From Verrucomicrobiota bacterium (GTDB taxonomy: Bacteria; Verrucomicrobiota; Verrucomicrobiia; Opitutales; Cerasicoccaceae), in the NCBI GenBank assembly GCA_039818205.1, contig JBCBUK010000014.1:32001-96000 (forward strand): a DNA stretch of 64,000 nucleotides, read 5' to 3'. Shown piece after piece: positions 32,898 through 54,051 of the stretch. Position 1 is the first letter of the stretch. Each line of letters opens with the position of its first letter. Below the pieces are notes generated by a model that did not search any database, had not been told where the DNA came from, and saw nothing but the letters and a program-made list of their open reading frames with translations. Position numbers and translations under genes: made by a program.

Positions 32898-34445
32898 TTA
32901 GTGGGCTGCCTCGAGAACCTTCGGTTTGTAGCCACCCTTGGACTTAAAGTAGAGGAACAAGCCAATGTAACCAATCAGCATGATTGCCGGGAAAATTGTC
33001 ATCTTGGTCAATGCAGCCTGTGCTCCGTGTTCGCGAATGGTTTCAATCTTTGCCTGCGCTTCTTCCGGTTGCTTGGCAACAGCCTCTCCGTCCAACGCAG
33101 TGTATTCTCCCAGCCAGATACTGCTTTGCGTCGTTACTTCACTATAGACCTGAGGCATCTCTTCTTTCAATGAACTCGTAACGGAGCCCTCTTGAAACAT
33201 TCCGATGATCGGGCCACCGACAATGCCGACTGCCAACATACCAATACCTGCAATCGCATTCAAAGTAAGCGCACCACCACGCGGTGTCTGCTCAGATGCG
33301 ACGCCAAGCATGGTCGGCCAGAAGTAGGTCTTGGCAACCGCGTAGACGGTCGCAGACCCAAAAATGAAGATCAAGCCAGCTGCTTTCGAGAGCATGAAGA
33401 GACCCACGATCGCAAGTGCGGAGCACGCCATGAGCAAGCCCAGTGGCGTTAGCGCCTTGATCACAGGCCCAGCGAAGAAGCGAAGCACCATCATAATCGC
33501 CGAAGTGTAAACCAGCACCCAGGCCGGATTCCAACCCGCTTCTTCCATTGCGCCCTCCATCAGGCCAGAAATAGCGCCATCGGTTCCGAGCTCGGTAATC
33601 GCGAGAGGCATCATGATGATCACCAACACAATCAACAGAGGATTACCAAATGAGCGGCAGTAGACTCCAAACCCGATTGTCGATACGGCGATCAAAGAAT
33701 ACATCAGCCACTCAGGCATTCCGGGAAACGCACCCGCAAGTTCACGGAAAATCAAATAGGAGGCGATGAAGGCACCAACAGCACCAAACTCAGCAAGCAT
33801 CTGGCGGTAACTCGAACCGGCAGCAACCCGCTCGTTCACTGGGAACTTCACCTTGAATAGCATGATCACGTAGATGATCGCTGGCGCGAACATGAAGATC
33901 AGCAGAATACGCCAGTCATTGGAAACCGCACCATGCAACCCAATTGCAATGATACCACCCACGACCAGACCAGCTGGCCAGCCAGCGTGGAGGATGTTCA
34001 ACCATTTCGATTTTTCATCCTTGTAGATCGTGGCAACCACCGGGTTGATAAACGCTTCAACCGTTCCGTTTCCAAGACCTAGAACCACCGATCCCCAATA
34101 CAAATAATTCCAAGCCGCTGCTTGAGCATCCGCACCACCCGCTTGCAGCGCACTGTGCCCCATTAAGGCGAGAACGGCAAAACCAGCATAACAGACAAAG
34201 CTGAACAACATGGCGAAGCGGTATCCCACATAATCGATAAACAGACTGAAGAGGATAATGCTAATCGCAAACGGCCAGAGACCAGCTCCGAAAAGTCGAT
34301 TCGCTTGCACGGCATCAATGCCAAGCGCTTCGGGCCACACGCCACTGCCGATCAAGATCGCGCGAAAAATAAACGCCATCGAGGTGGTAATCAGGGCAAT
34401 AAAGCAGCCCCAGAAAACTAGTTTGTCGTTCTTATTATGTTCCAT
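32898..34445 (-). CDS. MFS transporter (probable sugar/glycoside permease)
   Basis: >=12 TM; GNGTVEAFINPVVAT...LNILHAGWP motif; ATG at 34445. Confidence 0.88.
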   Translation of the reverse strand: MEHNKNDKLVFWGCFIALITTSMAFIFRAILIGSGVWPEALGIDAVQANRLFGAGLWPFAISIILFSLFIDYVGYRFAMLFSFVCYAGFAVLALMGHSALQAGGADAQAAAWNYLYWGSVVLGLGNGTVEAFINPVVATIYKDEKSKWLNILHAGWPAGLVVGGIIAIGLHGAVSNDWRILLIFMFAPAIIYVIMLFKVKFPVNERVAAGSSYRQMLAEFGAVGAFIASYLIFRELAGAFPGMPEWLMYSLIAVSTIGFGVYCRSFGNPLLIVLVIIMMPLAITELGTDGAISGLMEGAMEEAGWNPAWVLVYTSAIMMVLRFFAGPVIKALTPLGLLMACSALAIVGLFMLSKAAGLIFIFGSATVYAVAKTYFWPTMLGVASEQTPRGGALTLNAIAGIGMLAVGIVGGPIIGMFQEGSVTSSLKEEMPQVYSEVTTQSSIWLGEYTALDGEAVAKQPEEAQAKIETIREHGAQAALTKMTIFPAIMLIGYIGLFLYFKSKGGYKPKVLEAAH

Positions 34446-34510
34446 GGGAGATTGTGAGAGATTGAAGACGAGGTGAAGAAAAGGGTGCAAGGCAAGCGAA
34501 GGCTAGAGGC

Positions 34511-35284
34511 CTACTCGCTAAAACGACGACGGTAACGCATCGGGGTGATCTTCAACTCAAGGCGGAAGGCCCGCGTCATGTTGGTTTGATCATTAAAGCC
34601 ACAGTCGACGGCGATGGCAGCCAAACTGCGGTTCGTATCCCGAAGTAACTTACAAGCCGCGTTAAGCCGCGTCTTGCGTAAATACATCAACGGGGTCAGC
34701 CCAAAGGTTTTGCGGAACAGCCGCTCCTGGGAGCTGACCGAGATTCCACTGACGCTAGCCATATCGGAAACCGAAATCTTCTTGCGGTAGTTCGCCCGAA
34801 CAAAATCGACGATCTTATGCATCTCCGGGTAGTTGGCGTAAACGGTGTCCGTGTCCCGAATGATGCGGGCATATCCGAACAAACCAATAACTTCGCCTTC
34901 GGCACTGCGCAGGGGGATTTTCGTGGTGCAAAACCAATCAAGCGATCCATCCGAAGCAGGGACCAACTCAATCCGATTACGAATAACCTCACCGGTTGAC
35001 ATCACTTTTTGGTCATCCGTGTAGAAGGCGTCCGCCAGAAAATCTGGGCTGAATTCGTAGTCCGTCTTTCCTAAAACTGACGCAATCGACGTCTCCCCAA
35101 GGGTTTGGGCAAACGCAAGATTGCCTCCCATAAATCGGCTCTCGCGATCTTTGACAAAGCACAAGATGTCGGAAAGTGCTTCCGACACAACGTCGACAAT
35201 TTGCCCAGGAAGTAGCTCCGCCAAAAACGCAGACCGGGCTTCCTCAATTGCTTCATTCGCAATGGGGGTGGGTTTCATTTGCAT
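34511..35284 (-). CDS. AraC family regulator with N-terminal PAS domain
   Basis: FVKDRESRF...GKTDYEF PAS; IAVDCGFNDQTNMTRAFR AraC HTH. Confidence 0.92.
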   Translation of the reverse strand: MQMKPTPIANEAIEEARSAFLAELLPGQIVDVVSEALSDILCFVKDRESRFMGGNLAFAQTLGETSIASVLGKTDYEFSPDFLADAFYTDDQKVMSTGEVIRNRIELVPASDGSLDWFCTTKIPLRSAEGEVIGLFGYARIIRDTDTVYANYPEMHKIVDFVRANYRKKISVSDMASVSGISVSSQERLFRKTFGLTPLMYLRKTRLNAACKLLRDTNRSLAAIAVDCGFNDQTNMTRAFRLELKITPMRYRRRFSE

Positions 35285-35479
35285 AAAGAACGATTAGCGT
35301 TTGACGGCATATGACAAAATGCAAACTCAAAAAAACACATTATCCATAAGATATGAAAATGCTTAAAACTGGAACTAAGCCACTGTCAAACAATGACTTA
35401 AATCCAATTCACAAACAACTCATACTTGTCGTTTTCCGACATCGACAAACCAATCGCACTCGAAAAGTGCGGAAATATG

Positions 35480-36694
35480 TCACTTGGACAACTCGCCAAT
35501 CGCCGGGTTTTCCATCACGTGATTGATCACCGTAGCCAGGCAACCACGTAACTGATCCTCATTGGTTTGACTCACAACTACCGTCAACGGGTCAGTCATG
35601 CAGGACATCGTTTCTGCCAAAATCGCCTCCTTGATCACCGGCTCAACAAACTTCATCAGCGGACAAAGCCGACCACCCACAACGATCAATGACGGATTGA
35701 ATGCCTGAACAAGCCGCGCCGCTCCGGTACCAAATTTCTGCCCGACATCATCAAGCACTTTGAGAACCGACGAATCACCCTGCTCCGCCTTCTCAGCAAC
35801 CCAGTCAATCCAATCGACCTCGGCACCCTCTTCTTGCGGGACGTCAACACCAACATCTGCCAGTTTGCGAATGACCGCGCTTGATCCGATTTCCGTGAGC
35901 CAGCAGCCCTCCTTGCCGCATCGGCATTTCACGCCGTTTGCATCAAAGCTCGTGTGTCCTACCTGTCCCGCAAAACCGCGTTCACCTCGCATCAAATTTC
36001 CGTCGATGTAAACACCCGCGGCCAACCCGACGCCGAGACTAATATAGATGAAATTCTGTGGAGCCGCATTCGTTTCAACATAACGGGCGCCAATCGCGCC
36101 GGCATGGGCCTCGTTCTCGACGAAAACCGGAACGGCAAAACGCTTCTCCCAGTCCGCTTTCAAAGTGACATGCTCCCAACCAGAGGTCGGTCCGTAGGCC
36201 AGTTGACCATCCACGCGATCGACTAATCCAGCCCACGCGACACCAATTCCGTAACATTGTAACTCGCGATCGCGACCAACTGCGAGTGCATCTTCAATTA
36301 ATAGGGCTACTTGCTCAAGAGTTTTGCCAGGTGATTCCTTCAGGTCATAAGAGATACTTTCGCGCCACAAAACCTCTTCGCCTATATTCGTGAGAAGTAA
36401 CGAAATACGGTCCAAATCGATATCGACTGCGAGCATGCACCCTGACCACGGATTTAGCTCTAGAAGCAAACCTGGGCGACCCGCTCGGCCACCATCATAG
36501 GTCGTTTCGCTGATCAACGAGGCCTCTAGCAGGTCTGCAACGATATTCGAGACCGTGGCACGTGTCAGGCCCAGTCTAGAAGCGATGTTGGCACGCGACA
36601 ATGCGCCTTGATTCCGCAGTAGATCTAGAACATTGATCGCATTGAGTCGGCGGATATCGCTTCGATCATATCGTTGTTTGGTTAATATATCCAT
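35480..36694 (-). CDS. ROK family transcriptional repressor (XylR/NagC-like)
   Basis: SRANIASRLGLTRATVS HTH, GGRAGRP, ENEAHA, GQVGH...CRCGKEGCW. Confidence 0.93.
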   Translation of the reverse strand: MDILTKQRYDRSDIRRLNAINVLDLLRNQGALSRANIASRLGLTRATVSNIVADLLEASLISETTYDGGRAGRPGLLLELNPWSGCMLAVDIDLDRISLLLTNIGEEVLWRESISYDLKESPGKTLEQVALLIEDALAVGRDRELQCYGIGVAWAGLVDRVDGQLAYGPTSGWEHVTLKADWEKRFAVPVFVENEAHAGAIGARYVETNAAPQNFIYISLGVGLAAGVYIDGNLMRGERGFAGQVGHTSFDANGVKCRCGKEGCWLTEIGSSAVIRKLADVGVDVPQEEGAEVDWIDWVAEKAEQGDSSVLKVLDDVGQKFGTGAARLVQAFNPSLIVVGGRLCPLMKFVEPVIKEAILAETMSCMTDPLTVVVSQTNEDQLRGCLATVINHVMENPAIGELSK

Positions 36695-36804: not shown

Positions 36805-38289
36805 ATGCATAGAACAAAACCCCAGCTTTCGCGTAGAAACTTCCTCAAATCTAGCGCTGCAATCGGCGCATTTACGGTTTTACCATCCTATATCGCGCTT
36901 GGCAACAAATCTTCATCGGGTAATGCACCCAGCGAGCGCGTTCGTCTTGCAGTTATTGGTATCGGCCATCAAGGGAACGGAGATCGTAAAGCATTGATGA
37001 GCTCTAAGTTATGCGATGTTGTCGCGCTATGCGACATTGATATGTTGGGCGCACATACGCATGAAGCGCGATATACCCACGGTTTGACCAATAAACCCCC
37101 CAAGATGAAAGACGGTAAGGCGGCACCCGCTCAAACCGCCATCAAGGCCCGTGGTTATCAGGATTTTCGCAAAATGTTCGACGAAATGGGCGACGATATC
37201 GACGCCGTTTTGATCGCCACTCCGGACCATTCCCACTTCGCTGCCGCCATGCTGGCGATGTCGCTCGGGAAACACGTTTACGTTGAGAAGCCCTTGGCGC
37301 ACACCTTCGGCCAGACACAGCGTTTGATGGATATCGCCGAGCGCACGGGTGTTGCCACCCAAATGGGCAATCAGGGCCACTCAGGGGCCAACTATTTTCA
37401 GTTCAAGGCCTGGCGCGAAGCAGGCATCATTAAGAACGTCCACCGTATCACCGCGCACATGAACAATTGGCGCCGCTGGCATGGCTGGGGGCAGGACGCC
37501 ACCGAGTACCCTCAACAGGCCGTTCCCGAGGGCGTTGATTGGGATCAGTGGATCGACGTGGTCGCCCAAGAACGCCCGTTCAGCAACAAACTGCATCCAC
37601 AGGAATGGCGCAGCTGGTTCGAATACGGCAGCGGAGCCTTCGGCGACTGGGGACCGCACATCCTCGATACCTGCCACGAATTTTTGGAGCTCGGTTTACC
37701 TGAGAAAGTAACCGCGGTGAAACTGGAAGGACGCAACCCACTCGTTTACCCACAAGCATCCACCATCCGATTTAGCTTTGCCGAACGCGGACCTGATCTG
37801 CCAGCTTGTGAAGTAACTTGGTATGATGGCCAAAAGAACTGGCCGCCGCTTGAACCCGAGCTAGGCGAGTTGGTCAAGGATCCCGCTACCGGCAAGGAAA
37901 CCCGGAAGAAGCTCGAGCTGGGCGGTCCAGGAAAGATCATCTACTCGGATGACCTGGTCTTCAAGGGCGGCTCGCACGCGCGCCCACTCACGATTGTGCC
38001 CAAGGAAAAATTCCTGGAAATGCGGAAGTCGCTGCCAAAGTTTCCCCAGAAGAACTCTAGCCACTACGCAAACTTCATCCTGGCCTGTAAGGGCGAGGAG
38101 GAGACCCGGTCCCCATTCAGCGTTAGTGGCGAACTGACTCAAGTCTTCAACCTCGGAGTTCTGGCCCAGCGATTTGGCGGGGAACTGGAGTTTGATCAGA
38201 AGACAAAAACGATTACGAACAATCCATCAGCCCAAGCATTGCTCGACCCAGCTCCGCGCAAAGGCTGGGAAGAATTCTACAGTCTCTAA
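36805..38289 (+). CDS. Tat-exported Gfo/Idh/MocA family oxidoreductase
   Basis: SRRNFLK twin-arginine signal; GIGHQG Rossmann; ATPDHSH, VEKP, GDWGPHILD. Confidence 0.93.
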   Translation: MHRTKPQLSRRNFLKSSAAIGAFTVLPSYIALGNKSSSGNAPSERVRLAVIGIGHQGNGDRKALMSSKLCDVVALCDIDMLGAHTHEARYTHGLTNKPPKMKDGKAAPAQTAIKARGYQDFRKMFDEMGDDIDAVLIATPDHSHFAAAMLAMSLGKHVYVEKPLAHTFGQTQRLMDIAERTGVATQMGNQGHSGANYFQFKAWREAGIIKNVHRITAHMNNWRRWHGWGQDATEYPQQAVPEGVDWDQWIDVVAQERPFSNKLHPQEWRSWFEYGSGAFGDWGPHILDTCHEFLELGLPEKVTAVKLEGRNPLVYPQASTIRFSFAERGPDLPACEVTWYDGQKNWPPLEPELGELVKDPATGKETRKKLELGGPGKIIYSDDLVFKGGSHARPLTIVPKEKFLEMRKSLPKFPQKNSSHYANFILACKGEEETRSPFSVSGELTQVFNLGVLAQRFGGELEFDQKTKTITNNPSAQALLDPAPRKGWEEFYSL

Positions 38290-38312: not shown

Positions 38313-39065
38313 ATGAAAACAATCCTTCTCACAGGCTTGTCCCTGCTGTGTACCCTGGGTGCATCCGCCAACCAGATATCGGCAGAACAGCAAAAATACG
38401 TCGACCAGTATAAGAAACAGAAACACATCGTTGCTCCAGAAGACGCACTCCTCAACACCGAGCCCGAGCCAAACCTAACCGAGGGGTTCACGAACCTTTA
38501 TAATGGGAAAAACCTCGATGGCTGGACTCCCCGTGGCGGTTTCTGCACCTTTGAAGCTGACGGCGATAGCATTCTGGGCACCTGTGTAAAAGGCTCCCCA
38601 AGCACCTACCTGTGCACCGACAAGGACTACAGCAATTTCATTTTCACCGCCGAGCTCAAATGGGAGGTCGATGGCAATAGCGGAATCCTCTACCGCTCGC
38701 GCTACAAGACCAATCCCGACAAGGAGCACGAAATCGTCTACGGCCCTCAGTGCGAAATGGAAGGCTTTGCCCGCGATCGTCAGTGGTCCGGTGGAATCTA
38801 TGGTCAAGGTACGGTCGCCTGGCAATATCCGCTGTGGCTGGAAGCTCACGAAGAAGCCCGCGCTGCCTTAAAGAAGGATGACTGGAACCGCATCACCATC
38901 CAGGCCAACGGTCCCGTCATTAAGACGTGGATCAATGGCGTGCCTGCCGCACATTTTATTGACGACAAGTTTCTCGATGGCTTCTTCGGCCTTCAAGTGC
39001 ACTCGGGGCACCAGGGTACCATTCGTTTCCGCAACCTAAAGGTCAAAGAGCTGGAACCACACTGA
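38313..39065 (+). CDS. Secreted DUF1080 (3-keto-disaccharide hydrolase/lyase family) protein
   Basis: Signal peptide; LYNGKNLDGW, NSGILYR, WN...GLQVH, FRNLKVKEL. Confidence 0.9.
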   Translation: MKTILLTGLSLLCTLGASANQISAEQQKYVDQYKKQKHIVAPEDALLNTEPEPNLTEGFTNLYNGKNLDGWTPRGGFCTFEADGDSILGTCVKGSPSTYLCTDKDYSNFIFTAELKWEVDGNSGILYRSRYKTNPDKEHEIVYGPQCEMEGFARDRQWSGGIYGQGTVAWQYPLWLEAHEEARAALKKDDWNRITIQANGPVIKTWINGVPAAHFIDDKFLDGFFGLQVHSGHQGTIRFRNLKVKELEPH

Positions 39066-39635
39066 AAGGATCTCTTTGCCAACAGTGACTTTTCTGAGTG
39101 GACCCAAGTGAATGGCAAACCGGTCGGTGGCGGTTGGTCCATCGAAGACGGCGTTATCCATCGCGGAAAGCTTATAGCGGGTTCTATCATCACGAAGGAA
39201 CACTACACGGACTTTGAGCTTATTTTTGACTGGAAGATTTCCGGCTCCGGCAACTCTGGTGTGAAGTATCGTGCGCGCAAAAACCTTGGCTTGGAGTATC
39301 AAGTGCTCGACGACAAGGGCCATCCCAACGGTAAAAATCCACTAACCCGTGCTGGGTCGATCTATGCACTATACCCGGCTTCGGACGACAAAACACTCAA
39401 GCCCGTTGGCGAATGGAATACCGGACGCATTCTCGTGCAGGGAAACCATGTTGAGCATTGGCTCAATGGCGAACAAGTCCTTGAAGCAGAGATCGGCAGC
39501 GACGAATGGAAAAAACGTTTTGCGGCGAGCAAGTACCACAAACATGATGGATTTGGCACGTGGACCGGAAACATTCTCCTCCAGGATCATAGCGATCCCG
39601 TCTGGTACCGCAATGTTCGCATCCGCGAGCTTTAA
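39066..39635 (+). CDS. Second DUF1080 domain, in frame with the upstream gene after a single TGA (split gene or readthrough)
   Basis: KDLFANSDFSEW...NSGVKYR...EYQVLDD...LQDH...YRNVRIREL; same frame as 38313; only GTG 39108 available as an independent start. Confidence 0.8.
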   Translation, partial: KDLFANSDFSEWTQVNGKPVGGGWSIEDGVIHRGKLIAGSIITKEHYTDFELIFDWKISGSGNSGVKYRARKNLGLEYQVLDDKGHPNGKNPLTRAGSIYALYPASDDKTLKPVGEWNTGRILVQGNHVEHWLNGEQVLEAEIGSDEWKKRFAASKYHKHDGFGTWTGNILLQDHSDPVWYRNVRIREL

Positions 39636-39670: not shown

Positions 39671-41275
39671 ATGAGCAACGAAAGCCCTCGTGAGGCCATT
39701 CTTGCTGCCCAGGAAAAAGGCGGCTTACACAAATTCCTGACCTACGCCAAGCTCTCCGGCCCCGGCTGGATGCAAGGCGCTATTACGCTCGGCGGCGGCT
39801 CGCTTGCTGGCGCAATGTATCTGGGCATTATCTCCGGCTTCGGGCTGCTCTGGTTGCAACCGCTGGCGATGATCTGCGGGATCATCATGCTCTCCGCGAT
39901 TGCCTATGTCACGCTGTCAACCGAAGCCGCGCCCTTTGGTTTAGTTAACAAGCACCTGACACCTGCACTAGGCTGGGCTTGGCTAATTGCAACCGTGATG
40001 GCCAACATCGTTTGGTGCATGCCTCAGTTCAATCTGGGCCGCGCAGCGATTCAGCAGAACCTGATACCCGCCGTCGGCGATGGTAACGTTTCAACGATCG
40101 TCATTTGCTTGATCCTCCTTGTCATCGCACTCGGAGTAAACGTGCTTTATGAGTCTGAGGGCAAGGGTCGCCAATTGTTTGACCTCATCATCAAATGCAT
40201 GGTGGGCCTCATTGTCCTATCGTTTATCCTCGTAGTGATTACTCTGGCGAGCAACGGCTTGATCGATGTCGGAGCCATCTTCGGCAACCTCATCCCAGAC
40301 CCCTCGCTACTGTTCAAACCGGCGGAAGGATACAGCGCCTTGATCGCTCAATCCAGCCAACCCGAGTGGTGGACGAATCGCATCGTCAACGACCAACGCG
40401 ACATCATCATAACCGCGTTCGGAACAGCCGTCGGCATCAACATGACCTGGCTGCTCCCCTACTCTCTGCTCAAAAAACGCTGGGGTAAAGTGGAGCGCGG
40501 TCTTTCGATTTTTGACTTATCAATCGGTTTGTTCGTGCCTTTCTTTTTGGCCACGAGCTGCGTCGTAATTGCCGCCGCATCCCAATTCCACGCCAAGACA
40601 CTTGATGTCCCTCCTGGCTCGGGTGACGAAACAATTGCGGCTCTCGTCGCCGCGCATCCCGGCGTTCCAAGTGAAGCGGACCAGTCCCTGGCTTTGATGC
40701 TCGTTAAGCGCGATAATTTCCAACTGGCAACCGCTCTGGAGCCCCTTGCTGGCAAAGCCGTTTCGCAATGGATTTTTGGCTTCGGTGTTTTGGGAATGGC
40801 GCTTTCTACCATCATCATCTTGATGCTCATGAATGGCCTTGCGTTCCAGGAACTGCTGGGGCAACGAGGCAAACCGGGTGAGAAGCGTGCGCACTATATC
40901 GGCTGTCTGATCTCTGGCCTCGCCGGATTTGTTGGTCCCTTCATCTGGACCGGAAAAGCCAAGGCCGCCCTGGCAATTCCAACCTCGGTAATTGGTGGCT
41001 CGTTAATCCCGATCGCCTATTTCACATTCTTCCTAATGATGAACTCCAAGAAGGTCCTCGGAGACAATCGCCCAGAAGGCACTCAACGGATCATCTGGAA
41101 TGTCCTGATGGGCGGCGCAACCCTGATCGCCTCAATTGGTTCCGTTTGGGTCCTGTCGGGCAAGAGTCACTTTGAGAACTGGAAGGGTATGATCCCGGCA
41201 GCGGGACTTGGTCTGCTTGTTGCCCTGTTCATTGTTGGAACGATTTCCTTTATCAAAAACGAGAAAGAGTCATGA
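39671..41275 (+). CDS. Nramp/MntH-like (APC superfamily) transporter
   Basis: GPGWMQGAITLGGGSL N-terminus, ~12 TM; lacks the canonical DPGN metal motif. Confidence 0.75.
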   Translation: MSNESPREAILAAQEKGGLHKFLTYAKLSGPGWMQGAITLGGGSLAGAMYLGIISGFGLLWLQPLAMICGIIMLSAIAYVTLSTEAAPFGLVNKHLTPALGWAWLIATVMANIVWCMPQFNLGRAAIQQNLIPAVGDGNVSTIVICLILLVIALGVNVLYESEGKGRQLFDLIIKCMVGLIVLSFILVVITLASNGLIDVGAIFGNLIPDPSLLFKPAEGYSALIAQSSQPEWWTNRIVNDQRDIIITAFGTAVGINMTWLLPYSLLKKRWGKVERGLSIFDLSIGLFVPFFLATSCVVIAAASQFHAKTLDVPPGSGDETIAALVAAHPGVPSEADQSLALMLVKRDNFQLATALEPLAGKAVSQWIFGFGVLGMALSTIIILMLMNGLAFQELLGQRGKPGEKRAHYIGCLISGLAGFVGPFIWTGKAKAALAIPTSVIGGSLIPIAYFTFFLMMNSKKVLGDNRPEGTQRIIWNVLMGGATLIASIGSVWVLSGKSHFENWKGMIPAAGLGLLVALFIVGTISFIKNEKES

Positions 41276-42654: not shown

Positions 42655-43173
42655 ATGAGTTCAAACGAATCTGGCGGTAACGACCTAGGACTAACCCTGG
42701 GAATGCTCACCCTCCGCATCTGGTTGGCAATGCGGTCCTTCCAAACCGGCCTCGAAAAGTATGCTGGTATGAAGGCCGACGACACCGCTGTCGAGTTAGA
42801 TGGGGAACCCAACACCTACGGCCTGACCGAGGAGACCATGGAGAAAACCTACTCGTTTTCCGATTACCATGGCGTTCCCGCCGCCCTGGCAGACAAGTTC
42901 GCCAAGGAGCCCCTCATCCCTGGCTTTTTCCTGAAAATCTACGACGCCACCCTGGGACCCATCCTAATCATCCTGGGCATCACACTTCTCATTGGCATCT
43001 GCACCCGCTTTACGCTGTTCGCTATGGGTCTGGTCTACTGCAGCCTGACTTTTGGTCTAATCCTCATCAAGCAAGACGCTGGCGTTGCCTGGCTCGGCAT
43101 CCATATCATCATGGTTGTGCTGGCGCTCACGCTTGCAAGATACAATCGACTGGCTATAATGAATAAATTCTAG
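42655..43173 (+). CDS. DoxX-like membrane protein
   Basis: LTLRIWLA...GLEK motif, periplasmic loop, LLIGICTR, 4 TM. Confidence 0.72.
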   Translation: MSSNESGGNDLGLTLGMLTLRIWLAMRSFQTGLEKYAGMKADDTAVELDGEPNTYGLTEETMEKTYSFSDYHGVPAALADKFAKEPLIPGFFLKIYDATLGPILIILGITLLIGICTRFTLFAMGLVYCSLTFGLILIKQDAGVAWLGIHIIMVVLALTLARYNRLAIMNKF

Positions 43174-44603: not shown

Positions 44604-44607
44604 CGAT

Positions 44608-45333
<726 letters not shown>

Positions 45334-45355
45334 GCTCAACAGCCACTTTTTATGC

Positions 45356-45385
45356 AAAAGGACACCGCTCGAGCGGTGTCCTTTT
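45356..45385. terminator. Perfect 30-bp palindrome, bidirectional terminator
   Basis: AAAAGGACACCGCTCGAGCGGTGTCCTTTT between convergent genes. Confidence 0.8.
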
Positions 45386-45435
45386 TTGTTAAATCGGTTT
45401 ACCGGAGTTCCTCGCTCCAGCATCGGGCACTCTAG

Positions 45436-46269
45436 CTATTTGGCGCGATTGACCGACTGTACTTGGGCGCTGCGATCAATATTTAGATTGGCGGCGCGGC
45501 CGTCTTCATCATCGGGAATGTAGACGATCAGCTTATTACACAGGTCGAGGTGCGCTTTCACATCGTCGCCGGTGGTGAAGGTCAAACAGTGGCCTCCAAA
45601 GTCCTTGGCGTCATTGAGAAAGTGGAGGTGGAAGCCTGGTGGGTTGAGCGTCGAGGCGTACTGCGGATAGTAGAAGCCAACCAAGCTGCCCTTAACATCA
45701 TCTTGTTCGAAGATGGACTGAACCTTGGTGATATCCGCCAGGCTCGGGTAAGGTTTCTCGTTCTGCTTGGGGATACTGCGGCACTTCATATATTTGAAGG
45801 TGCCCGAAATCTGGATCGCGTAGGGTGTGTTGATGTTCGGGAGCTGTTTCTCCACAAACTTCGAAACCTCATCGTAGGTCAACCCCTCTGGAATATCGAT
45901 CACTTGATCTGGCTGGAAGTTGGCCATCGTGATGTAAGGCGTCGTGGCGCTGTACGGCATCTCGTGCACCTTGCCATCGTAATCAATTTGGTAGATGACC
46001 CCATCAATCATGTAGAGCTCACCGTCGAGCTTATCGAAAGTGCCGAGACCAAAATTTCCGTAAGGTCTCAGCTCTTCGAAGCTGACGGATCCATCATACA
46101 GACCGGCAAGGAGACCGTTGTAGGACGACACTTGAGTCACACAATTGCGATGGAGATCAAGTGTCTCGTGCGAGCCCGCAGGCTTCGGTTCGCTGTGCGG
46201 CGCTTTGGCAAAGCAGGCAGCAGCGAGCGTTAAGGCGACAAAGGAGAAGAGATAATTGTTTCGAACCAT
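45436..46269 (-). CDS. budA: Alpha-acetolactate decarboxylase family protein with N-terminal signal peptide
   Basis: GLYDG...GNFGLGTFDKLDGE, RSIPKQ..PY, GFHLHFL...GGH metal-binding motif. Confidence 0.85.
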   Translation of the reverse strand: MVRNNYLFSFVALTLAAACFAKAPHSEPKPAGSHETLDLHRNCVTQVSSYNGLLAGLYDGSVSFEELRPYGNFGLGTFDKLDGELYMIDGVIYQIDYDGKVHEMPYSATTPYITMANFQPDQVIDIPEGLTYDEVSKFVEKQLPNINTPYAIQISGTFKYMKCRSIPKQNEKPYPSLADITKVQSIFEQDDVKGSLVGFYYPQYASTLNPPGFHLHFLNDAKDFGGHCLTFTTGDDVKAHLDLCNKLIVYIPDDEDGRAANLNIDRSAQVQSVNRAK

Positions 46270-46339
46270 AGGAGTGATTGAGTTCGAAGAATAGATACGA
46301 CCTTTGCCGCCATAAGGCTAGCCCGAATATATCAACACT

Positions 46340-47632
46340 CTAGGTCTTGATGCGGATCTCTTTCGCTTCGCCTTGAATTGCTGGCACCTCTTCCGGCAGA
46401 ACAACCTCACCGCGCTCAAAGTCGATTGGGCGAGGCGACATCTCCATCGAGTAGAACGGTGATTTCTTGTTCTCAGTAAGATCAACCCAGCGAATAAATT
46501 TTCCAGTGTATGCAGACATGCGACCACCGATCGCCGCCAGGCTCGCTTCGGCGATTTCCTGTGCTCCGTTGATGGGCTTATCCGTGCGGATCGCCCGAAT
46601 CAATTCAACCTGCTGCTGGATATTGCCATCATCAAATTCCTGCTCGATTGGATCAATTGAAACCTCTTTGCCGACGACCTTCATTCCGTTGGTGTAACCA
46701 TCGACGCCGCGGAAGGTTTCTCCGACCCGATTGTAGCAACCGCTGATTTGACGGCACTGGCTTTGAACGTGAATGCCATCACCGTAGTCACAATCGACGG
46801 CAAAGAAGTCGAACTGGTTACCGGTTTCACGGCGAGCGCGACCACCCATTCCCATAAATGAGATCGGATTTCGGCCCAGATACCAACGGGCGATGTCAAA
46901 CTGGTGGACGTGTTGCTCGGCAATATGATCGCCTGAGAGTTCAACGAAGTTGAGCCAGTTGCGGGTAATGTAGTCGGCATCACTTTGGCCCGGCTGACGG
47001 GGTGAAATCCAAGGCACTTGACCATTCCAATAGATGCTTCCGCCAACGATCTCTCCGATCGCGCCTTGGTCAATCTTGGCCTTTTGCTCACGGTACTTCT
47101 TATCGGAGCGGCGCTGCGTGCCAACGCCAATCGAAAGCCCCTTGTGGTCAGCCAACTCGCCCAGCTCCATGACCTTTCTTGCGCCGACTGGATCCACGGC
47201 AACGGGCTTCTGCACAAACAAATGCTTGTCCGCATTCAGGCAGGCCTCCATATGCAACGGTCGGAAATTCGGTGGAGTCGCCATGAGGACCAGTTCAGCA
47301 TCCGATTCGGCAACCTTATGGTAGGCATCGAAGCCGACATGTCCCACCGCAGGATCAATCTGATGCTTTTCCGCGAAGGCTTTTACACGATCGGCAAACG
47401 GATCCGCGATTGCCACGAATTCGGGTTCGATGCCCAAAATCTCACAGGCCTTGCGGACCTGCCAAACATCGCCACCACTGCGGCCTCCGCAACCGATAAC
47501 ACCGACCTTGAGTTTGCTGGTGTTTAGGCCGTTGTTTGTTTGCGCTCCAAGAATGTTAAAGCTGGCAACCGCGGCCGAGCCGAGTGCAGCTGTCTTCACA
47601 AAATTACGTCGGGTGAGGTTATACGTGTTCAT
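46340..47632 (-). CDS. Tat-exported Gfo/Idh/MocA family oxidoreductase
   Basis: TRRNFVK signal; GVIGCGGR, ATPPNFRP, QKPVAVD, SGDHIAEQHVHQFD. Confidence 0.93.
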   Translation of the reverse strand: MNTYNLTRRNFVKTAALGSAAVASFNILGAQTNNGLNTSKLKVGVIGCGGRSGGDVWQVRKACEILGIEPEFVAIADPFADRVKAFAEKHQIDPAVGHVGFDAYHKVAESDAELVLMATPPNFRPLHMEACLNADKHLFVQKPVAVDPVGARKVMELGELADHKGLSIGVGTQRRSDKKYREQKAKIDQGAIGEIVGGSIYWNGQVPWISPRQPGQSDADYITRNWLNFVELSGDHIAEQHVHQFDIARWYLGRNPISFMGMGGRARRETGNQFDFFAVDCDYGDGIHVQSQCRQISGCYNRVGETFRGVDGYTNGMKVVGKEVSIDPIEQEFDDGNIQQQVELIRAIRTDKPINGAQEIAEASLAAIGGRMSAYTGKFIRWVDLTENKKSPFYSMEMSPRPIDFERGEVVLPEEVPAIQGEAKEIRIKT

Positions 47633-47648
47633 TATTGTATTGGCTTAA

Positions 47649-48434
47649 TTATTTGCTGCGAACGTTCTCGCTAACGGGTTTCCCTGCAGCCCACAGGAAG
47701 CCACGGGTAAGCATGTCCATGTAGTTTGGATCGAGCATCGTTTCATTGTGATGCCCAATCGACGTGGCGAAAACACGGGTCTTATTGGGGCCGTATTCAT
47801 TCACCCAAACAGTCGAATGAGATTCTCCATTCTTCTCCGAGGTCGATTCCGCTAACGAAGTCATGGTCGGATAGATGGTCTTAATAAAATAGAGTTCGCC
47901 CTGCGGAGTGGTCCAATTGCTCATCCCCTCCGTGATCTCGTGATCAGGGTTCACGATCCGGACTTCGAACGGGTGCTTGGCGCCATGTCCCGGCGAATGG
48001 ACGCCGCAGAACTTCCACCAGTCTTCAGCGGTCGAGCCCTCGCGATAGCAATGCATCGAGCAATGGATCATCACGGCAGGCACACCATCAAGGTGTGGTT
48101 GCAGAATACCGGCAATATACTCCTCGTCGCTAATGTGGGCAAAACACTCGTTGTGCACAACGACATCATAGCCTTTGGCCCAATCGGGATTCTTATAGAA
48201 ATCAAGCAACACATCGCCTGCTTTCGTTCGCTGGTGCAATATCGTCCATTGAACTCGAAGCTTGGAGTTATCATCGATGCCACTAGGAATAATCTCCTGC
48301 TGCGTATCGTAGTCATGGCAGCAGCCACCGGTAATCAGAAGTGCTTTAACATCCGGCTTTGGGCTTGGCTTGGGCTTTGCCACCAAACTACTGGCGACAA
48401 AGAAACTAAGCATGAGGGTAACAATGATCTTCAT
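47649..48434 (-). CDS. Secreted ThuA-like domain protein
   Basis: Signal peptide; [35 protein letters not shown]. Confidence 0.88.
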
Positions 48435-48441
48435 GGTAAAA

Positions 48442-49995
48442 TTAGCCGTCTTTCTTGGGTTTTGGATAGTCTTGATTCAATTCCATATCGGCCTCACTCG
48501 GAGTCCGTGACTCGACGCCCTTCTCAGGCACTTCTGACTTTGCAGTCCAAAGTAATGCGTTAAGCACCGTCTTTCGAAAATCGTCGTGCATCCAGTTTTG
48601 ATGAAAGTGTCCTCCGGTAAAACCGAAGGCGCGCCCGCCATCGGGCCGATCATAGGCCCAGGCAACCACCTGCGGTTTTCCTGCCTTAACCTCCGAGAGT
48701 ACGGTTGGATTGCTACCGCGATTCTTATCTTTGGATCGCGAGGTTAAACTACGAACCGGTGGCAGAGCGGAGAGAATCGGTGTGACACCAGCCATTTCGG
48801 GTTGAAACCGCATATGATAATACCACTCGTCGCGGATCGTAAACGGCTCCACGCCCTGGGTGATCGGATGATCGGGAAACTCGGTGAATTCAGCATCCCA
48901 ATGTGGGTTCACCGACCAACCAATCTCAAAGTATCCACCCATCCAATCCAAAAATGTCGGCCCCAATACCTCCGGCTCAACCTCGACCGCAAAGTGTAGG
49001 CAGGCCACTCCGACACCGTCATCGACCAAGGCTTGAATCTTGTCTTGATGCTTCTTTGCCATGTGCCCTTTAAACCCGTCACAATACATTACCACCGTAT
49101 CCGGTTGTTGGTAGCCAACCCATCGCTGCGGCCACTCGCCTTCGGTCACCACTTGAGCAACGACATCGGTATTGCTTTCATTCAAACTTCGGGCCAAGAG
49201 CAAACTTCCCGCCTTGTGTTCGTGTGCGTTGTAACCGTGACTTTTCTCTCCGGCCAGAAACAGGATTTCTTTCTTATCCTCAGGCTCAAGCACGCGCAAC
49301 TGAATGTTACGGAAACGCACTTGCATCGGTGGACCCTGATGCAACTGCAATGCGATTAGACCGTCTTCCAAACGATCATCGGCATTCTCGGAAAACTCTG
49401 AAACCACGACTCCGTTGATCTTCTGGATACATTGGTTACCCCGAGCGATGATGTGGTAGGTATTCCATCCATCAAGATCGATGGCCTCAAGGATCTCATC
49501 AGCATCGCCCACGCGGGCGACAACCTCAACGTCTCCCTTCTTCGATCCGACAACCGTCTTCTCACCGCGCCTAGCGAGCACACCCTTGTGGCGTTCGCCA
49601 TAGGCGGCGCCCATCCACTGAGGATCTTCGGCGATATCGGCCTGATACCCACCGACGACCCATTGGCCCTTTTCTTCAACCGGGAAACTGCGGTATTGAA
49701 TCCCGCTGTTGTGGTTAACCAACTTAAAATCGACCTTGAGCTCGAAGTCTTTAACGTTGTCACCCTCCCAGATTAGAAAGGTGTTCGCGGGCGTGCGGTT
49801 ATCTGCCGTGGTTTCGCCAACAATGTCACCATCTTCAACGCGCCAAAACTTGGGATCGCCATCCCAACCATCCAACGTCTTTCCATCAAACAGCTCGACG
49901 AAAACACTGTCATCAGCAACGGCGACAGCCACGCCAAGCAGGCTTGGCAGCAGCCAAGTCAATGCTCGTTTGAAATGGGGTTTGGAGAAAAACAT
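48442..49995 (-). CDS. Secreted DUF1080 + ThuA fusion protein
   Basis: [10 protein letters not shown]...NSGIQYRS...GYQADI...LQLHQG...FRNI, then AGEKSHG..HEH...DEWYY...FTGGHFH. Confidence 0.9.
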
Positions 49996-49999
49996 AGAA

Positions 50000-50875
50000 C
50001 TACACTTCGACTCGTTTCGAGTTCTCGATGGCTTTCCATTTGGTTCTTAAAAACTGTAAGCCTTCGGTCGCCAATTGTTCCGGACTATCGTAAAGCTGTC
50101 GCCAAATCGAGGCTGCTTTGGCAATAACATGATTCTCCTCCGAGAAACTCTCGATGATGATGTCTCCATCGTAATCGATATCCGAGAGTGCGCCCAAAAC
50201 ACCATCCCAGTCGACCTGGTCATGCCCGAGAAGACCACGATGGCTCGCACTCGCGTGGACGTGGCCAATTAAACTACCCGCCTGGCGAATCGCCTCTCCG
50301 GAGTCCATCTCCTCGATATTCATGTGAAACGTATCGAGGTGGATCTTCAGCGCATTACTTCCCACTTCGTTGATTAGTTCTGTGGCCTGCCCCAAGGTGT
50401 TGATGCAGTCGGTTTCAAAGCGATTGAGCGGCTCCAGCGCCAATATAACACCTGCATCTTCTGCTTTCGCACAAAGTGGGCGGAGTGCGTCACAGATCTG
50501 TGCCCGTTGTCGCGCCCGCTCCGATTCCGTATGCGAACCGGTGCGGCCGGTCTCCGAATAGAATGGCCCACAGATCACCTTCGAATTCAAGCTGACGGCA
50601 AGGTCGATCAACTCACAAACATAGTGAACCGTGGCCGCGCAGTCCTGCGGCGAACCCCGAAGATCACGACCTGGACCAAAGGCGCCGCAGATCACAGGCT
50701 CATCAAGCCCAGCAACTTCCAACTGATCCTTGAGCCGGATCGGATCAACCGATTCTGGATCAACAATGGCCAGCTCCACGGCCTCAGCCCCATAAGACTT
50801 GAAGGTCTCAATCAAGGGTAGATCCGCATTGGTAAAACCAGGACTGACGAGAAAGGTATTTAAGCCAAATCGCAT
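50000..50875 (-). CDS. Sugar phosphate isomerase/epimerase family TIM barrel (ketose 3-epimerase-like)
   Basis: LEPLNRFE, DTFHMNIEE, HVHAS...RG, IESF metal-binding motifs. Confidence 0.9.
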   Translation of the reverse strand: MRFGLNTFLVSPGFTNADLPLIETFKSYGAEAVELAIVDPESVDPIRLKDQLEVAGLDEPVICGAFGPGRDLRGSPQDCAATVHYVCELIDLAVSLNSKVICGPFYSETGRTGSHTESERARQRAQICDALRPLCAKAEDAGVILALEPLNRFETDCINTLGQATELINEVGSNALKIHLDTFHMNIEEMDSGEAIRQAGSLIGHVHASASHRGLLGHDQVDWDGVLGALSDIDYDGDIIIESFSEENHVIAKAASIWRQLYDSPEQLATEGLQFLRTKWKAIENSKRVEV

Positions 50876-50969
50876 AAGGTAACGGTGATAAGCTTACACG
50901 AAATAGGAGTAATATAGCTTGTAAATATTCCGCAATTTTGTGTATAGATTCGGCAACCCGCTAATTGTC

Positions 50970-51716
50970 ATGCCTCAACTGGAATCCGTCGTCGATCGCT
51001 CGGAATACGATCCAACCTCCATCTTGGCTCTATTTTCCGCCTTAAAGGACGTGTATCTATTCATAAAGGATCGAGACGGGTGCTTCATTGGGGCAAATGC
51101 CCTGCAGCTCGAAAAACTCGGGCTGAAGTCGGAAAACGAACTCATTGGCAAAACGGATTTCGATTTTTTTCCGAGCTACATGATCGCCCACTACGCGCAA
51201 GACGACGCGAAGGTGATGCGCGATGGCGAACCGATCCTGCAACGGGTGGAGCTCGTGGCCAACCCCGATGGCTCAGTGTCCTGGCACGTCACGAGCAAAT
51301 TCCCCCTACGTGATCGGTCGGGTGATTGCATTGGCATCATTGGCTGCATGCGCGATTTCGTCCGAAGCGACAGCGCTTGGCAACCCTACCGCAGCATGAA
51401 CGATGTCGTGGGCTACATCAACGAACACTATGCGGACTCCATTGAGATCGCGGACCTGGCTAAGATTGCTGGCTTGTCCGTCAGTCAATTTGAACGCCGC
51501 TTCAAAAGCGTTTTCCAGAAAACCCCGACAAGGTTCCTGATCCAATATCGCCTAACCTGTGCTAGCCGTTTGCTGATCAACACCAACGATACCCTCAGCA
51601 GTATCGCCCACGAAGTTGGTTTCTATGACCACAGTCACTTTTCTCGCGAGTTCCAGAAACTGTTCGGAACTCCTCCGGGCGTCTATCGCCGGGAGCACAG
51701 CGCCAGCGCCTCATGA
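50970..51716 (+). CDS. AraC family regulator with N-terminal PAS domain
   Basis: FIKDRDG...GKTDFDFF PAS; IAHEVGFYDHSHFSREF; paralog of 34511-35284. Confidence 0.92.
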   Translation: MPQLESVVDRSEYDPTSILALFSALKDVYLFIKDRDGCFIGANALQLEKLGLKSENELIGKTDFDFFPSYMIAHYAQDDAKVMRDGEPILQRVELVANPDGSVSWHVTSKFPLRDRSGDCIGIIGCMRDFVRSDSAWQPYRSMNDVVGYINEHYADSIEIADLAKIAGLSVSQFERRFKSVFQKTPTRFLIQYRLTCASRLLINTNDTLSSIAHEVGFYDHSHFSREFQKLFGTPPGVYRREHSASAS

Positions 51717-53239
51717 AGCAGAGTCTGACCTACATTTCTCTGTGGTTTGGCGTTCTGTTTGTTGGTCTATTCCTAAGGTCCGATGATCTGCTCGATCGGC
51801 CCATCCACTTCGATGAAGCAACCGGCGCACGCCTCTTGGGCAAACACCTTGAAGGCAATGGGTTCGATTTCAACCCGCAGCATTTTCACGGGCCCATACT
51901 AGCATACGTCACCGCGCCAATCGCCAAGGCGCGCGGGGAAAACTCCTGGGCAGAGCTTTCATTAACCACGCTGCGTGTTAGCCCCATCATCGCGGGCATG
52001 CTCCTCATCATCACGCCGCTGCTTTGGATTCGGGAGATTGGCCACCGCGCCACACTCGCCTCCAGCCTGTTTATCGCAACCTCGCCGTTGATCGTCTACT
52101 ACAACCGTATGTTCATCCACGAAAGTTGGCTGGCCTTGTTTGGAATGATCTCCGCAGCATTGCTTTTTCAACTGCTGTGCAAACCAACATTGCGCATCGG
52201 CGCTCTTACGGGTTTGGCGATGGCGCTCATGTTTGCCACCAAGGAGTCCTTTGCAATCTCGGTGCTTAGCTGGGGCGGAGGTATCGTGATCTACCTGGGC
52301 TACCGATTTTTTACCCGGGATAGCAATCCGATCAAGGATTGGAAACTCTACTTTAAACCTGGAATCGCCCTCGTGGTGGTCGGTTTCCTCGTCTCCGCGT
52401 TTTTCTACACCGATGGATTCCGCAACCCCAAGGGTATCGTCGATGCCGTGATGACCTACTTTGTCTACGAGACAACCGCAGGCCACGACAAAGCGTTTAC
52501 CTATTATCTGGAATTGTTGCTCTGGCCCAAACATCTGCTCGGTCAGTGGTGGAGTGAGGGCTTGATTGCGATACTCGCATTGGTCGGGATCGTTCTTGCA
52601 GTCGTCCGCAAACACCAATCACGGGGACCCATTCTTTTCGTCTCCGCGATCGTCGTCGGGCATTTCCTCATCTACAGTCTGATCGGTTACAAAACTCCCT
52701 GGCTGATGGTACTGCCATGGTGCTACGCCTGCCTCCTGGCCGGTATGGTATTTCATGCGGCCAGCGGGTTGCGTCCGATTTCTGAATGGGGCCTGTATTT
52801 GGTAACTGCACTCGCACTCGTTTTCCAGATCGCCCAAAGCCGCACAAGTAGCGGACGCTTTGCTAACGATTTCCGCAATCCCTATACCTACGTTCCTACC
52901 AGTAAGAACGCGCAGCAAATTGGCTCTTGGTTGAGCACGGTCGATTCGACAATTCAACCGCTCGGAACGATTGCCATCATCGGTCAGGAGTATTGGCCGC
53001 TGCCATGGTATTTGCGGCAGTTTGAATCCGTTGGTTACTGGGCAGAGCTCCCCGCTGAAGCTGAGAATTTTTCAGTCTTGATCGCGACACCCTCAAAGTC
53101 GGCCGAAGCCGACGCCATGCTTGAGGCAACACACACCGCCTTGCCCCATGGCTTGAGGACAAACGTTGCCGTAACCATCTATCTAAAGAACGATCTCTGG
53201 GACCAATGGATCCATCGACCCGAAACAGTGGACCGATAA
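51713..53239 (+). CDS. GT-C fold integral membrane protein (PMT/GT39-like, TIGR03663/Agl23-like)
   Basis: RPIHFDEA first-loop acidic motif, HGP, YNRMFIHE, ATKE, YKTPW, WPLPWYLR; ~11-13 TM. Confidence 0.8.
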   Translation: MKQSLTYISLWFGVLFVGLFLRSDDLLDRPIHFDEATGARLLGKHLEGNGFDFNPQHFHGPILAYVTAPIAKARGENSWAELSLTTLRVSPIIAGMLLIITPLLWIREIGHRATLASSLFIATSPLIVYYNRMFIHESWLALFGMISAALLFQLLCKPTLRIGALTGLAMALMFATKESFAISVLSWGGGIVIYLGYRFFTRDSNPIKDWKLYFKPGIALVVVGFLVSAFFYTDGFRNPKGIVDAVMTYFVYETTAGHDKAFTYYLELLLWPKHLLGQWWSEGLIAILALVGIVLAVVRKHQSRGPILFVSAIVVGHFLIYSLIGYKTPWLMVLPWCYACLLAGMVFHAASGLRPISEWGLYLVTALALVFQIAQSRTSSGRFANDFRNPYTYVPTSKNAQQIGSWLSTVDSTIQPLGTIAIIGQEYWPLPWYLRQFESVGYWAELPAEAENFSVLIATPSKSAEADAMLEATHTALPHGLRTNVAVTIYLKNDLWDQWIHRPETVDR

Positions 53240-54051
53240 ACCATCGCTTCGATCATGAGGCGATGAAAACGACTTTTTCTTTGCGGATAGGTTGCGAGGA
53301 TCGCTCGTTGGCTTTAGCCGCAGCGAGCGAGTGCATCGATCAGATTGATCAGATAGAAAACAAACTAAGCCGCTATTTGCCTGGGAGCGATATCTGGCAG
53401 ATCAACCACCTCAACGCAGGTGAGTCGCTCTTTGTTAGCGAACTTACCTACGAGTGTTTGCGACTCGCTCTTGAGGTCTATCAGGAAACCCAGGGCCTGT
53501 TCGACATCACCCTGGGCCAGCAGATAGAACACCGAAAAAATGAACAAGGCGGACCCCTTCCGGCATTAAGCGGTCAACTCATGATCGACCCCGATCGACC
53601 TCGAGTTCACTGCGTCGAGGCGGGGCGACAGATCGACCTCGGTGGCATTGGAAAAGGCTTCGCTCTGGACCACTTGATGAAAATTTTGCGCGACGGCGGT
53701 ATCAGCTCGGCCCTGCTGGCAGCTGGCGCAAGCACCCAATTGGCCCACGGAGCCACACCATGGCCGATTCAGCTAACCGGCCAGACGGGAACGACAACGA
53801 TCGACCTGGTCAACCAATCACTTAGTGCGTCCGGCACGGCCATTCAAGGGAGCCATATTATTTCCCCTTACGACCAAGAGAGTGCCTACCCAAGAGAGAA
53901 CATCTGGCTGGTCCACGACAGCGCAGCCAAGGCTGATGCCTACACGACTGCCGCCTTGCTCATGCCGGACGATATGCTTGCTGAGTTCGCGGAATCAGTT
54001 GCTGCCATTTACTTGGAAACCACCGACGGAATCACAACCCTAAGAAGCTAG
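53206..54051 (+). CDS. apbE: FAD:protein FMN transferase (ApbE family), no signal peptide
   Basis: AMKT, LSRY..GSDI..IN, TQGLFDIT, DLGGIGKG, HIISP, ADAYTTA. Confidence 0.88.
   Translation: MDPSTRNSGPINHRFDHEAMKTTFSLRIGCEDRSLALAAASECIDQIDQIENKLSRYLPGSDIWQINHLNAGESLFVSELTYECLRLALEVYQETQGLFDITLGQQIEHRKNEQGGPLPALSGQLMIDPDRPRVHCVEAGRQIDLGGIGKGFALDHLMKILRDGGISSALLAAGASTQLAHGATPWPIQLTGQTGTTTIDLVNQSLSASGTAIQGSHIISPYDQESAYPRENIWLVHDSAAKADAYTTAALLMPDDMLAEFAESVAAIYLETTDGITTLRS

Follow-up and report, generated by a model that had tools for sequence, protein, structure and literature searches.

Within the 64,000-nt window that we analyzed from a Verrucomicrobiota genome, positions 32898 to 54051 (~21 kb, 0.44% of the genome) contain the genes for a DoxX-like small membrane protein, a Gfo/Idh/MocA oxidoreductase (GfoC) with a signal for twin-arginine translocation (Tat), an exported lipoprotein (F58), a GT-C membrane protein, and an ApbE flavin transferase. 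Judging from gene content and conservation, these five genes and a distant GT2 gene are one conserved, widespread six-gene envelope redox-plus-glycosylation module, apparently undescribed so far, and the ~21 kb is this conserved module embedded in variable sugar-catabolism cargo. The best explanation of the whole, to which we assign a probability of about 0.5, is that the six genes would work as a membrane-wired periplasmic sugar dehydrogenase. Open reading frames (ORFs) of the window were searched with Pfam and TIGRFAM-type profiles, and genome-wide counts come from profile searches.

A first-pass annotation of the stretch had proposed that the DoxX, discoidin, GT-C, and flavin transferase genes form an envelope electron-transfer module and had named co-occurrence across genomes as a check, which we ran in 150 genomes of the order (E-value cut-offs of 1e-3 for GT-C and DoxX, 1e-8 for F58, 1e-20 for ApbE, and 1e-85 for GfoC). 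The five genes were nearly all-or-none: 43 genomes carried all five, 3 carried four, 1 carried three, 2 carried two, 3 carried one, and 98 carried none, counts that depend on cut-offs of our own choosing and treat related genomes as if they were independent. The outcome that the first-pass account had named as refuting, a lack of conserved co-occurrence, was thus not what we saw. DoxX and GT-C genes lay no more than 10 kb apart in 20 of the 47 genomes carrying both. A sixth gene, encoding GT2 and missing from the first-pass account, was recognized in the loci of 22 of 45 genomes (60 stretches of 20 kb); at an E value of 1e-40, 33 of the 150 genomes had it, of which 31 belong to the 47 module genomes, and in the source genome it lies away from the window (C6:213443-214201). 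The six genes are codirectional in three loci (L185, L194, and L196). Scanning species genomes with F58 returned at least 564 relatives; of the best 80 loci, many of which are truncated at a contig boundary, 74 held GfoC, 70 of these had the DoxX-like gene adjoining it, 24 held all five genes, and 16 held all six. The 33 loci of at least 18 kb contained GfoC (31), DoxX (31), GT-C (17), ApbE (16), and GT2 (13). Across the phylum, F58 was present in 50 of 250 genomes, 49 of which also had GT-C, and GT-C occurred without F58 in 13 more. F58 falls into at least 7,912 protein clusters, and a search for it on plasmids gave no match.

The two same-genus genomes searched had none of the five genes, and the closest matches of the module proteins lie in other families (for GfoC, 77% identity versus 71% within its own family), so horizontal gain of the module (42655 to 54051) is possible. 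Among the matches listed, the records closest to the window F58 (~82% identical) are titled Coraliomargarita, Puniceicoccaceae, and Opitutales. A neighbor count at an identity of at least 45% was biased by divergence and was set aside, and long GT-C or DoxX "fusions" in genomes G142 and G013, in which no additional family matched, were taken as start-codon artifacts.

The position occupied by DoxX provided the clearest functional clue. The window protein itself has no Pfam match, so the earlier DoxX label does not hold for it directly; we call it DoxX-like because 11 of 26 aligned orthologues match DoxX (PF07681, best E value of 2.1e-6). MauE is likewise matched by 11 of the 26, and a His in the last helix is present in 106 of 117 proteins. 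Outside the class of the source genome, six genome loci of the phylum have, next to GfoC on its downstream side, a gene for a protein of 870 to 950 amino acids; each of the five such proteins that were examined contains seven CxxCH motifs plus membrane helices at the C terminus, i.e., they are heptaheme cytochromes. In a metagenome scan, 17 of 80 loci held GfoC, with a heptaheme cytochrome in 13, Nqr-like genes in 1, and neither in 3; the query was the Nqr-type fusion protein, which biases these numbers away from DoxX. The order in one Nqr-type locus, L303, is GfoC, NqrD-, NqrE-, NqrF-, and NqrB-like genes, and an NqrC-like domain binding flavin mononucleotide (FMN) that is fused to an F58 paralogue, with F58 and GT-C following later; these Nqr-like assignments are mostly below the Nqr equivalog cut-offs. 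The NqrF-like protein is of the NAD/FAD/2Fe-2S type. The fusion recurs in a second locus, G303, where it contains the canonical motif DAITGAS and a linker reading DAVTRAT. GfoC, F58, and GT-C are thus constant across variants and the conduit gene varies. Because a heptaheme cytochrome or NqrBCDEF-like genes fill the DoxX slot in other lineages, whatever occupies it very likely conducts electrons, and since these are bona fide electron carriers, the electron-transfer role proposed at first pass is now likely. In two loci of the cytochrome type (L228:16573-19899 and L232:15445-17085), GfoC is immediately preceded by genes for electron-transfer flavoprotein (ETF) and ETF-quinone oxidoreductase.

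The predicted structure of GfoC has a Gfo fold (mean predicted local distance difference test [pLDDT] value of 90.9), and 105 of 106 orthologues carry a Tat motif. Position 399, in a loop that the first-pass account did not include, is occupied by S or T in all 106 orthologues of one set (106/106) and in 126 of 127 of a larger set, the exception being a truncated ORF. The residues upstream are variable (2 to 3 bits), and Ser399 comes after the sole stretch of the model with a pLDDT below 50 (residues 386 to 391). Among 145 pooled orthologues, 141 have the strict loop motif, 2 more have the Ser as judged by eye, and 2 lack it, namely, the Nqr-type proteins of L303 and G303. Since the S/T loop is conserved yet missing in these two, Ser399 probably carries covalent FMN. 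Among the variants, the canonical FMN motif occurs only in the Nqr-type fusion, and at the loop it was found in none of the 48 parsable sequences among 150 distant GfoC representatives.

Tat substrates fold in the cytoplasm, where the signal-less ApbE sits, so GfoC would be its natural target. Glucose-fructose oxidoreductase (GFOR), a Tat-exported Gfo-fold enzyme, likewise folds in the cytoplasm before export. The Ser/His/Asp catalytic triad described for ApbE (PMC12052999) is present in the module protein as Ser209, His217, and Asp244, and these residues and T248 are at least 95% conserved in 75 orthologues. A hydrophobic N-terminal stretch was found in 1 of 69 orthologues, so the extracytosolic signal that characterizes ApbE systems is lacking here; the single ApbE seen in G303 has a hydrophobic N terminus. 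GfoC is likely a new class of ApbE target, flavinylated prior to Tat export at a noncanonical motif. Such targets would have been missed by surveys because these kept only exported ApbE; the survey of Meheust et al. 2021 (PMC8238504) excluded ApbE genes without a signal.

F58 resembles family 32 carbohydrate-binding modules: in a fold search, its best match had a Z score of 17.3 (root mean square deviation of 2.6 over 152 aligned residues), and CBM32 proteins scored ~15. A lipobox-like motif is present in 62 of 146 orthologues, and position 61 is T in 139 and S in 5 of 146. The FMN-motif paralogue has no counterpart of Thr61, and its pocket residues differ. Complex prediction for GfoC and F58 gave a score of 0.55 (best control, 0.00), weakly supporting a contact, given that 116 of 157 solved pairs attain the score mark, as do 2 of 215 mismatched ones, and that just 18 of the 157 but both mismatches do so at 0.60 or below; the runs shared at least 90% of contacts, with a partner pLDDT of at least 90. 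The GT-C gene is single copy in the genome, and D34-E35, H59-G60-P61, and R88 of its product are at least 95% conserved in 77 orthologues; we take the DE and HGP motifs to be markers of the TIGR03663 family. TIGR03662 is expected in the same genome as TIGR03663 and was found in 0 of 5 genomes tested. Sequence searches for solved relatives of F58 or GT-C found none, and the nearest solved relatives of GT2 are ArnC, Dol-P-mannose synthase (DPMS), and GtrB. Two GT2 subfamilies that are 18% identical share one operon slot (L239:12241-12933 and L240:6708-7466 versus L062:10601-11350), and in L238 ApbE and GT2 read as a single ORF.

The module accompanies the 3-keto glycoside pathway and is dispensable to it, being nested within DUF1080-bearing genomes. 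Of the 150 genomes, 78 had DUF1080 matches; among the 46 genomes carrying four or more module genes, 44 had them. The idea that the module is needed for 3-keto cleavage found no support, since all genomes searched of two families, f2 (7/7) and f23 (6/6), carry DUF1080 without the module. Likewise, the extra genes do not appear to serve all four oxidoreductases directly, as only GfoC tracks the module. GfoA of the cargo has glycoside 3-dehydrogenases as its nearest solved structures (8TDF, E value of 9e-48; 8TDH, 5.5e-46) and scores 275.9 bits against NF058561; GfoC scores 50 bits (cut-off, 750).

In the mechanism that we propose, ApbE would attach FMN to Ser399 of GfoC in the cytoplasm, before Tat export; GfoC would oxidize a sugar using tightly bound NAD(P); and its FMN arm would transfer the electrons to DoxX and then to the quinone pool. 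GT2 would synthesize a polyprenyl-phosphate-hexose, and GT-C would hand the hexose to a periplasmic acceptor, for which Thr61 of F58 is the best candidate. In what is the weakest step, the keto-sugar product of GfoC, tethered or free, would accept hydride from the other Tat-exported dehydrogenases, reoxidizing them, and GfoC would maintain this pool in the oxidized state; NAD exchange is impossible for these enzymes in the periplasm. It is conceivable, if rather doubtful, that a hexose on Thr61 of a mobile F58 cycles between hydroxy and keto forms, gathering hydride from the numerous Tat-exported dehydrogenases and unloading it at GfoC, from which the FMN arm would relay it to DoxX, a cytochrome, or an Nqr-like complex; if true, a glycan would be a protein-bound redox cofactor, a periplasmic substitute for free NAD. 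Nasseri and coworkers reported that enzymes of this kind stick in the reduced form, that a 3-ketoglucoside reoxidant raised rates more than 100-fold, and that reoxidation by proteins in vivo was left open (10.1101/2024.03.25.586180). The pathway-defining papers leave open how Tat-exported, NAD-bound sugar dehydrogenases are reoxidized, and the module offers a testable answer. It would also suggest a concrete candidate role for proteins like DoxX and, for the first time, place bacterial members of TIGR03663 in a context.

Several observations, in addition to the cut-offs and relatedness mentioned above, weigh against this mechanism. No module protein of the window has the canonical D-x-x-[ST]-G-A-[ST] motif; loss of the S/T loop was seen in two loci (n = 2) that may share ancestry; and distant GfoC relatives keep the loop motif partly, with the DxRE[ST]/SYES form in just 13 of 48. 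The arm carrying Thr61 is modeled at a pLDDT of 79 to 88, so the role of Thr61 may be a structural one, and in alignments its counterpart is G-Y-P and not the TRAT threonine of the FMN-motif paralogue; homology of these two threonines was supported by neither MAFFT nor hhalign. Genome G078 has DoxX-GfoC without adjoining F58, GT-C, or ApbE, the same is true of a second DoxX-GfoC pair in the source genome (C5:241840-243834), and G030 has F58, GT-C, and ApbE without DoxX and GfoC. Thirty-four of the 78 DUF1080 genomes lie outside the 46 module genomes, including f23 genomes with up to ~20 DUF1080 matches, and two module genomes, G059 and G142, have no DUF1080 match. LacABC as a nonorthologous replacement of the module was rejected as well: PF13618, of the LacB type, is not distributed in a complementary manner (17 of 151 genomes, mostly module positive, and none in f2 or f23). 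Known 3-keto clusters recycle NAD via their own 3-ketoglucose (10.1101/2024.03.25.586180). Finally, NqrF-like systems are thought to move electrons outward (PMC8238504, section 13), so electrons may flow in either direction.

The strongest competing explanation, though an unlikely one, is envelope biosynthesis, in which GfoC would redox edit the GT2-made polyprenyl-phosphate-hexose with DoxX as electron sink, GT-C would transfer the sugar to a lipid or polymer, and the catabolic link would be incidental. Mycobacterial DprE1 is a model for such editing of lipid-linked sugars at the periplasmic face. The relatives of GT2 are compatible with this explanation, and the module is single copy and also present in genomes of 1.8 to 2.3 Mb with few Gfo candidates and in two without DUF1080. 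In addition, archaeal Agl23, of the GT-C family in question, flips lipid-linked sugars (PMC11182771), so GT-C may act on a lipid-linked substrate. However, unlike a core envelope pathway, the module was found neither in the two same-genus genomes searched nor in 98 of 150, its neighbors are catabolic (Gfo, DUF1080, and TIM) and not envelope genes, and it is nested in DUF1080 genomes. Less probable still is that electrons run in the reverse direction, with quinol or cytoplasmic NADH driving the reduction by GfoC of a periplasmic keto-sugar or other acceptor. The NqrF-like protein of the Nqr-type variant and the proposal of NAD(P)H as the donor in comparable systems (PMC8238504) would fit this, whereas the reported bottleneck of the Tat enzymes is reoxidation; sequence gives no direction either way. 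We also regard it as improbable that Ser399 is a site glycosylated by GT-C, with the signal-less ApbE acting on a different target or catalyzing a different reaction. The motif is noncanonical and S/T exchange in a flexible loop would suit any O-linked modification, but L303 and G303 retain GT-C and supply an FMN-binding domain, yet their GfoC has no loop; the loop thus tracks cytoplasmic ApbE and not GT-C.

The least probable reading is that of the first pass in full, i.e., that the entire 21 kb is one nonhydrolytic machine for red-algal galactan products: a porphyranase-like gene (PF18206/PF18040, at 29108) lies 1.8 kb to the left, genes for an aldo-keto reductase (AKR), a Zn-dependent dehydrogenase (Zn-ADH), and UxaE lie to the right (54072 to 57524), and locus L061 keeps the order GT-C, PAS-AraC, TIM, DUF1080-ThuA, ThuA, GfoD, but accessory genes seldom accompany the module (ThuA, TIM, and DUF1080-ThuA each in 1 of the 33 long loci; another Gfo gene in 27), the tandem DUF1080 gene is broken, and porphyranase-like genes are absent from the module loci of 45 other genomes. 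Records bearing F58 include Lacunisphaera, Luteolibacter, Chthoniobacter, and Opitutaceae, which also speaks against galactan specificity. The right-flank genes presumably encode a route from L-galactose to tagaturonate, compatible with porphyran use and with the gene at 29108.

Among known systems, the module resembles the ApbE-linked extracytosolic electron-transfer systems (PMC8238504; 10.1101/2024.03.13.584918) in that ApbE is combined with a membrane conduit that varies and with an exported partner in which an S/T is conserved, and one variant has Nqr-like subunits and an FMN-binding domain, as there. It departs from them in two defining features, since its ApbE is signal-less and the motif of its predicted target, a Tat-exported NAD enzyme, is noncanonical; moreover, the conduit here is DoxX-like or a heptaheme cytochrome, and the module is constantly accompanied by GT2, GT-C, and a protein with a CBM32 fold. 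The term "gfo" does not occur in the main texts of either paper, nor does "doxx" in that of the latter (Huang et al. 2024). The BT2156-BT2160 and Alistipes AL1-5 clusters (PMC8121099; 10.1101/2024.03.25.586180) share Tat Gfo/Idh/MocA, DUF1080, and TIM genes with the stretch, GfoA being nearest to 8TDF/8TDH, but they lack an electron link to the membrane, and their NAD is recycled through the exchange of keto-sugars; GfoC belongs to a separate subfamily, and the window TIM protein is epimerase-like. An Alistipes fosmid with a 3-keto cluster also bears GT2 and GT39 genes (10.1101/2024.03.25.586180, Fig. 3 legend), which may be chance. The LacABC/ThuAB glycoside 3-dehydrogenases (PMC9007349) would work alike, as membrane-linked periplasmic sugar oxidation feeding DUF1080, with different parts: PF13618 (gluconate-2-dehydrogenase subunit 3-like chain) has no match in the source genome, and here an NAD enzyme has a predicted FMN arm. 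Zymomonas GFOR shares the Tat-exported Gfo fold and bound nicotinamide cofactor; it is self-contained, with a ping-pong mechanism, and works without a flavin arm, a partner in the membrane, or associated glycosyltransferases. The Haloarcula pair Agl22/Agl23 is reportedly the subject of Lu et al. 2020. In it, too, a lipid-phosphate GT2 is paired with a TIGR03663 protein (PMC11182771); here the pair is bacterial and tied to a redox module, and TIGR03662 was not found in the five genomes tested. Our literature search found no paper on this gene set; most subscription papers were outside the search, and supplements of the flavinylation surveys may list such clusters.

Features of positions 32898 to 54051 of the window and the basis of their assignment
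Feature	Position	Strand	Basis
MFS transporter, PAS-AraC and ROK regulators, accessory	32898..36694	-	Pfam
GfoA, Tat Gfo/Idh/MocA, accessory	36805..38289	+	Nearest glycoside 3-dehydrogenases
Tandem DUF1080 gene with in-frame TGA at 39063-39065, accessory	38313..39635	+	PF06439 and comparison with relative
Nramp-like transporter, accessory	39671..41275	+	PF01566
GfoB, Gfo/Idh/MocA without signal, accessory	41272..42333	+	PF01408
DoxX-like small membrane protein, module core	42655..43173	+	No own Pfam match; orthologues match DoxX/MauE
GfoC, Tat-exported Gfo/Idh/MocA NAD(P) oxidoreductase, module core	43194..44603	+	PF01408, Tat motif, Gfo fold
GfoC Ser399 in DAIASYAS, candidate FMN attachment site	44388..44390	+	Conserved S/T
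F58, exported CBM32/discoidin-fold lipoprotein, module core	44608..45333	+	Weak PF00754/PF22633; fold match
F58 Thr61 (G-T-P, Pro-rich arm), candidate O-glycosylation site	44788..44790	+	Conserved T/S
Acetolactate decarboxylase, signal-like N terminus, unrelated insertion	45436..46269	-	TIGR01252 over cut-off
GfoD, Tat Gfo/Idh/MocA, accessory	46340..47632	-	PF01408 and Tat motif
ThuA protein and DUF1080-ThuA protein, accessory	47649..49995	-	Pfam
TIM-barrel protein, ketose 3-epimerase-like, accessory	50000..50875	-	AP_endonuc_2; nearest relatives
PAS-AraC regulator, accessory	50940..51716	+	Pfam
GT-C fold membrane protein, TIGR03663/Agl23-like, module core	51713..53239	+	TIGR03663 over cut-off
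ApbE flavin transferase without signal peptide, module core	53206..54051	+	PF02424

The first-pass gene list was largely borne out. PF01408 was found in four Gfo/Idh/MocA proteins, with an RRxF motif in those at 36805, 43194, and 46340 and none in that at 41272, and profile searches also recovered the two ThuA domains, the two transporters, the ROK and two PAS-AraC regulators, the TIGR03663-like protein (137.2 bits, versus a cut-off of 126.25), ApbE, and the F5/8 (discoidin) protein. The reported lack of classical glycoside hydrolases (GH) was confirmed, with zero GH-family matches within the stretch; a GH2 gene lies outside it, at 61776. Three DUF1080 domains are indeed present, but two of the listed ORFs (38313 and 39108) belong to a single tandem gene: the uninterrupted protein of a relative (444 amino acids, 60% identical) has Trp at the position of the in-frame TGA, which is either a nonsense mutation or an assembly error. 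The TIM-barrel protein was confirmed by a match to AP_endonuc_2, but its nearest relatives are ketose 3-epimerases and not hydratases of the keto-glucal type; a TIM protein related to the 8RO4 hydratase is on contig C7 of the source genome, and in 12 of 45 genomes such a protein is encoded next to the module. Genome-wide, there are 30 PF01408, 11 PF06439, 8 over-cut-off ThuA, 1 TIGR03663, and 3 ApbE matches, of which the stretch holds 4 PF01408, 3 PF06439, and 2 ThuA, a genuine enrichment for 0.44% of the genome. A Tat motif was present in 15 of 25 Gfo proteins of the genome in our own profile search. Promoter and terminator scans of the window gave chance-level results.

Some further loci are of interest. 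Stand-alone F58 paralogues with DAVTRAT-like motifs (L307:7878-9574, L309:370-2148, L317:2967-4710, and L319:2024-3812) adjoin genes for Tat-signal proteins without a Pfam match (AKR-like by eye) and may constitute another system with an FMN arm. The ApbE loci of five genomes that are rich in DUF1080 but lack the module had canonical targets or FGE-sulfatase-like neighbors (ORFs read by eye), with no Gfo gene within 1.5 kb; in module-negative f23 loci (L299 to L301 and L298), a secreted ApbE adjoins cytochrome c/FGE-sulfatase-like genes (read by eye), a possible alternative system. The second DoxX-GfoC pair of the source genome is 52% and 69% identical to that of the window, keeps the Ser loop, and lies beside MFS and large porphyranase-like genes. 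In the stretch itself, the acetolactate decarboxylase gene, overlooked at first pass, separates the two halves of the module, and the MFS and PAS-AraC genes at the left end are frequent DoxX flankers in close relatives.

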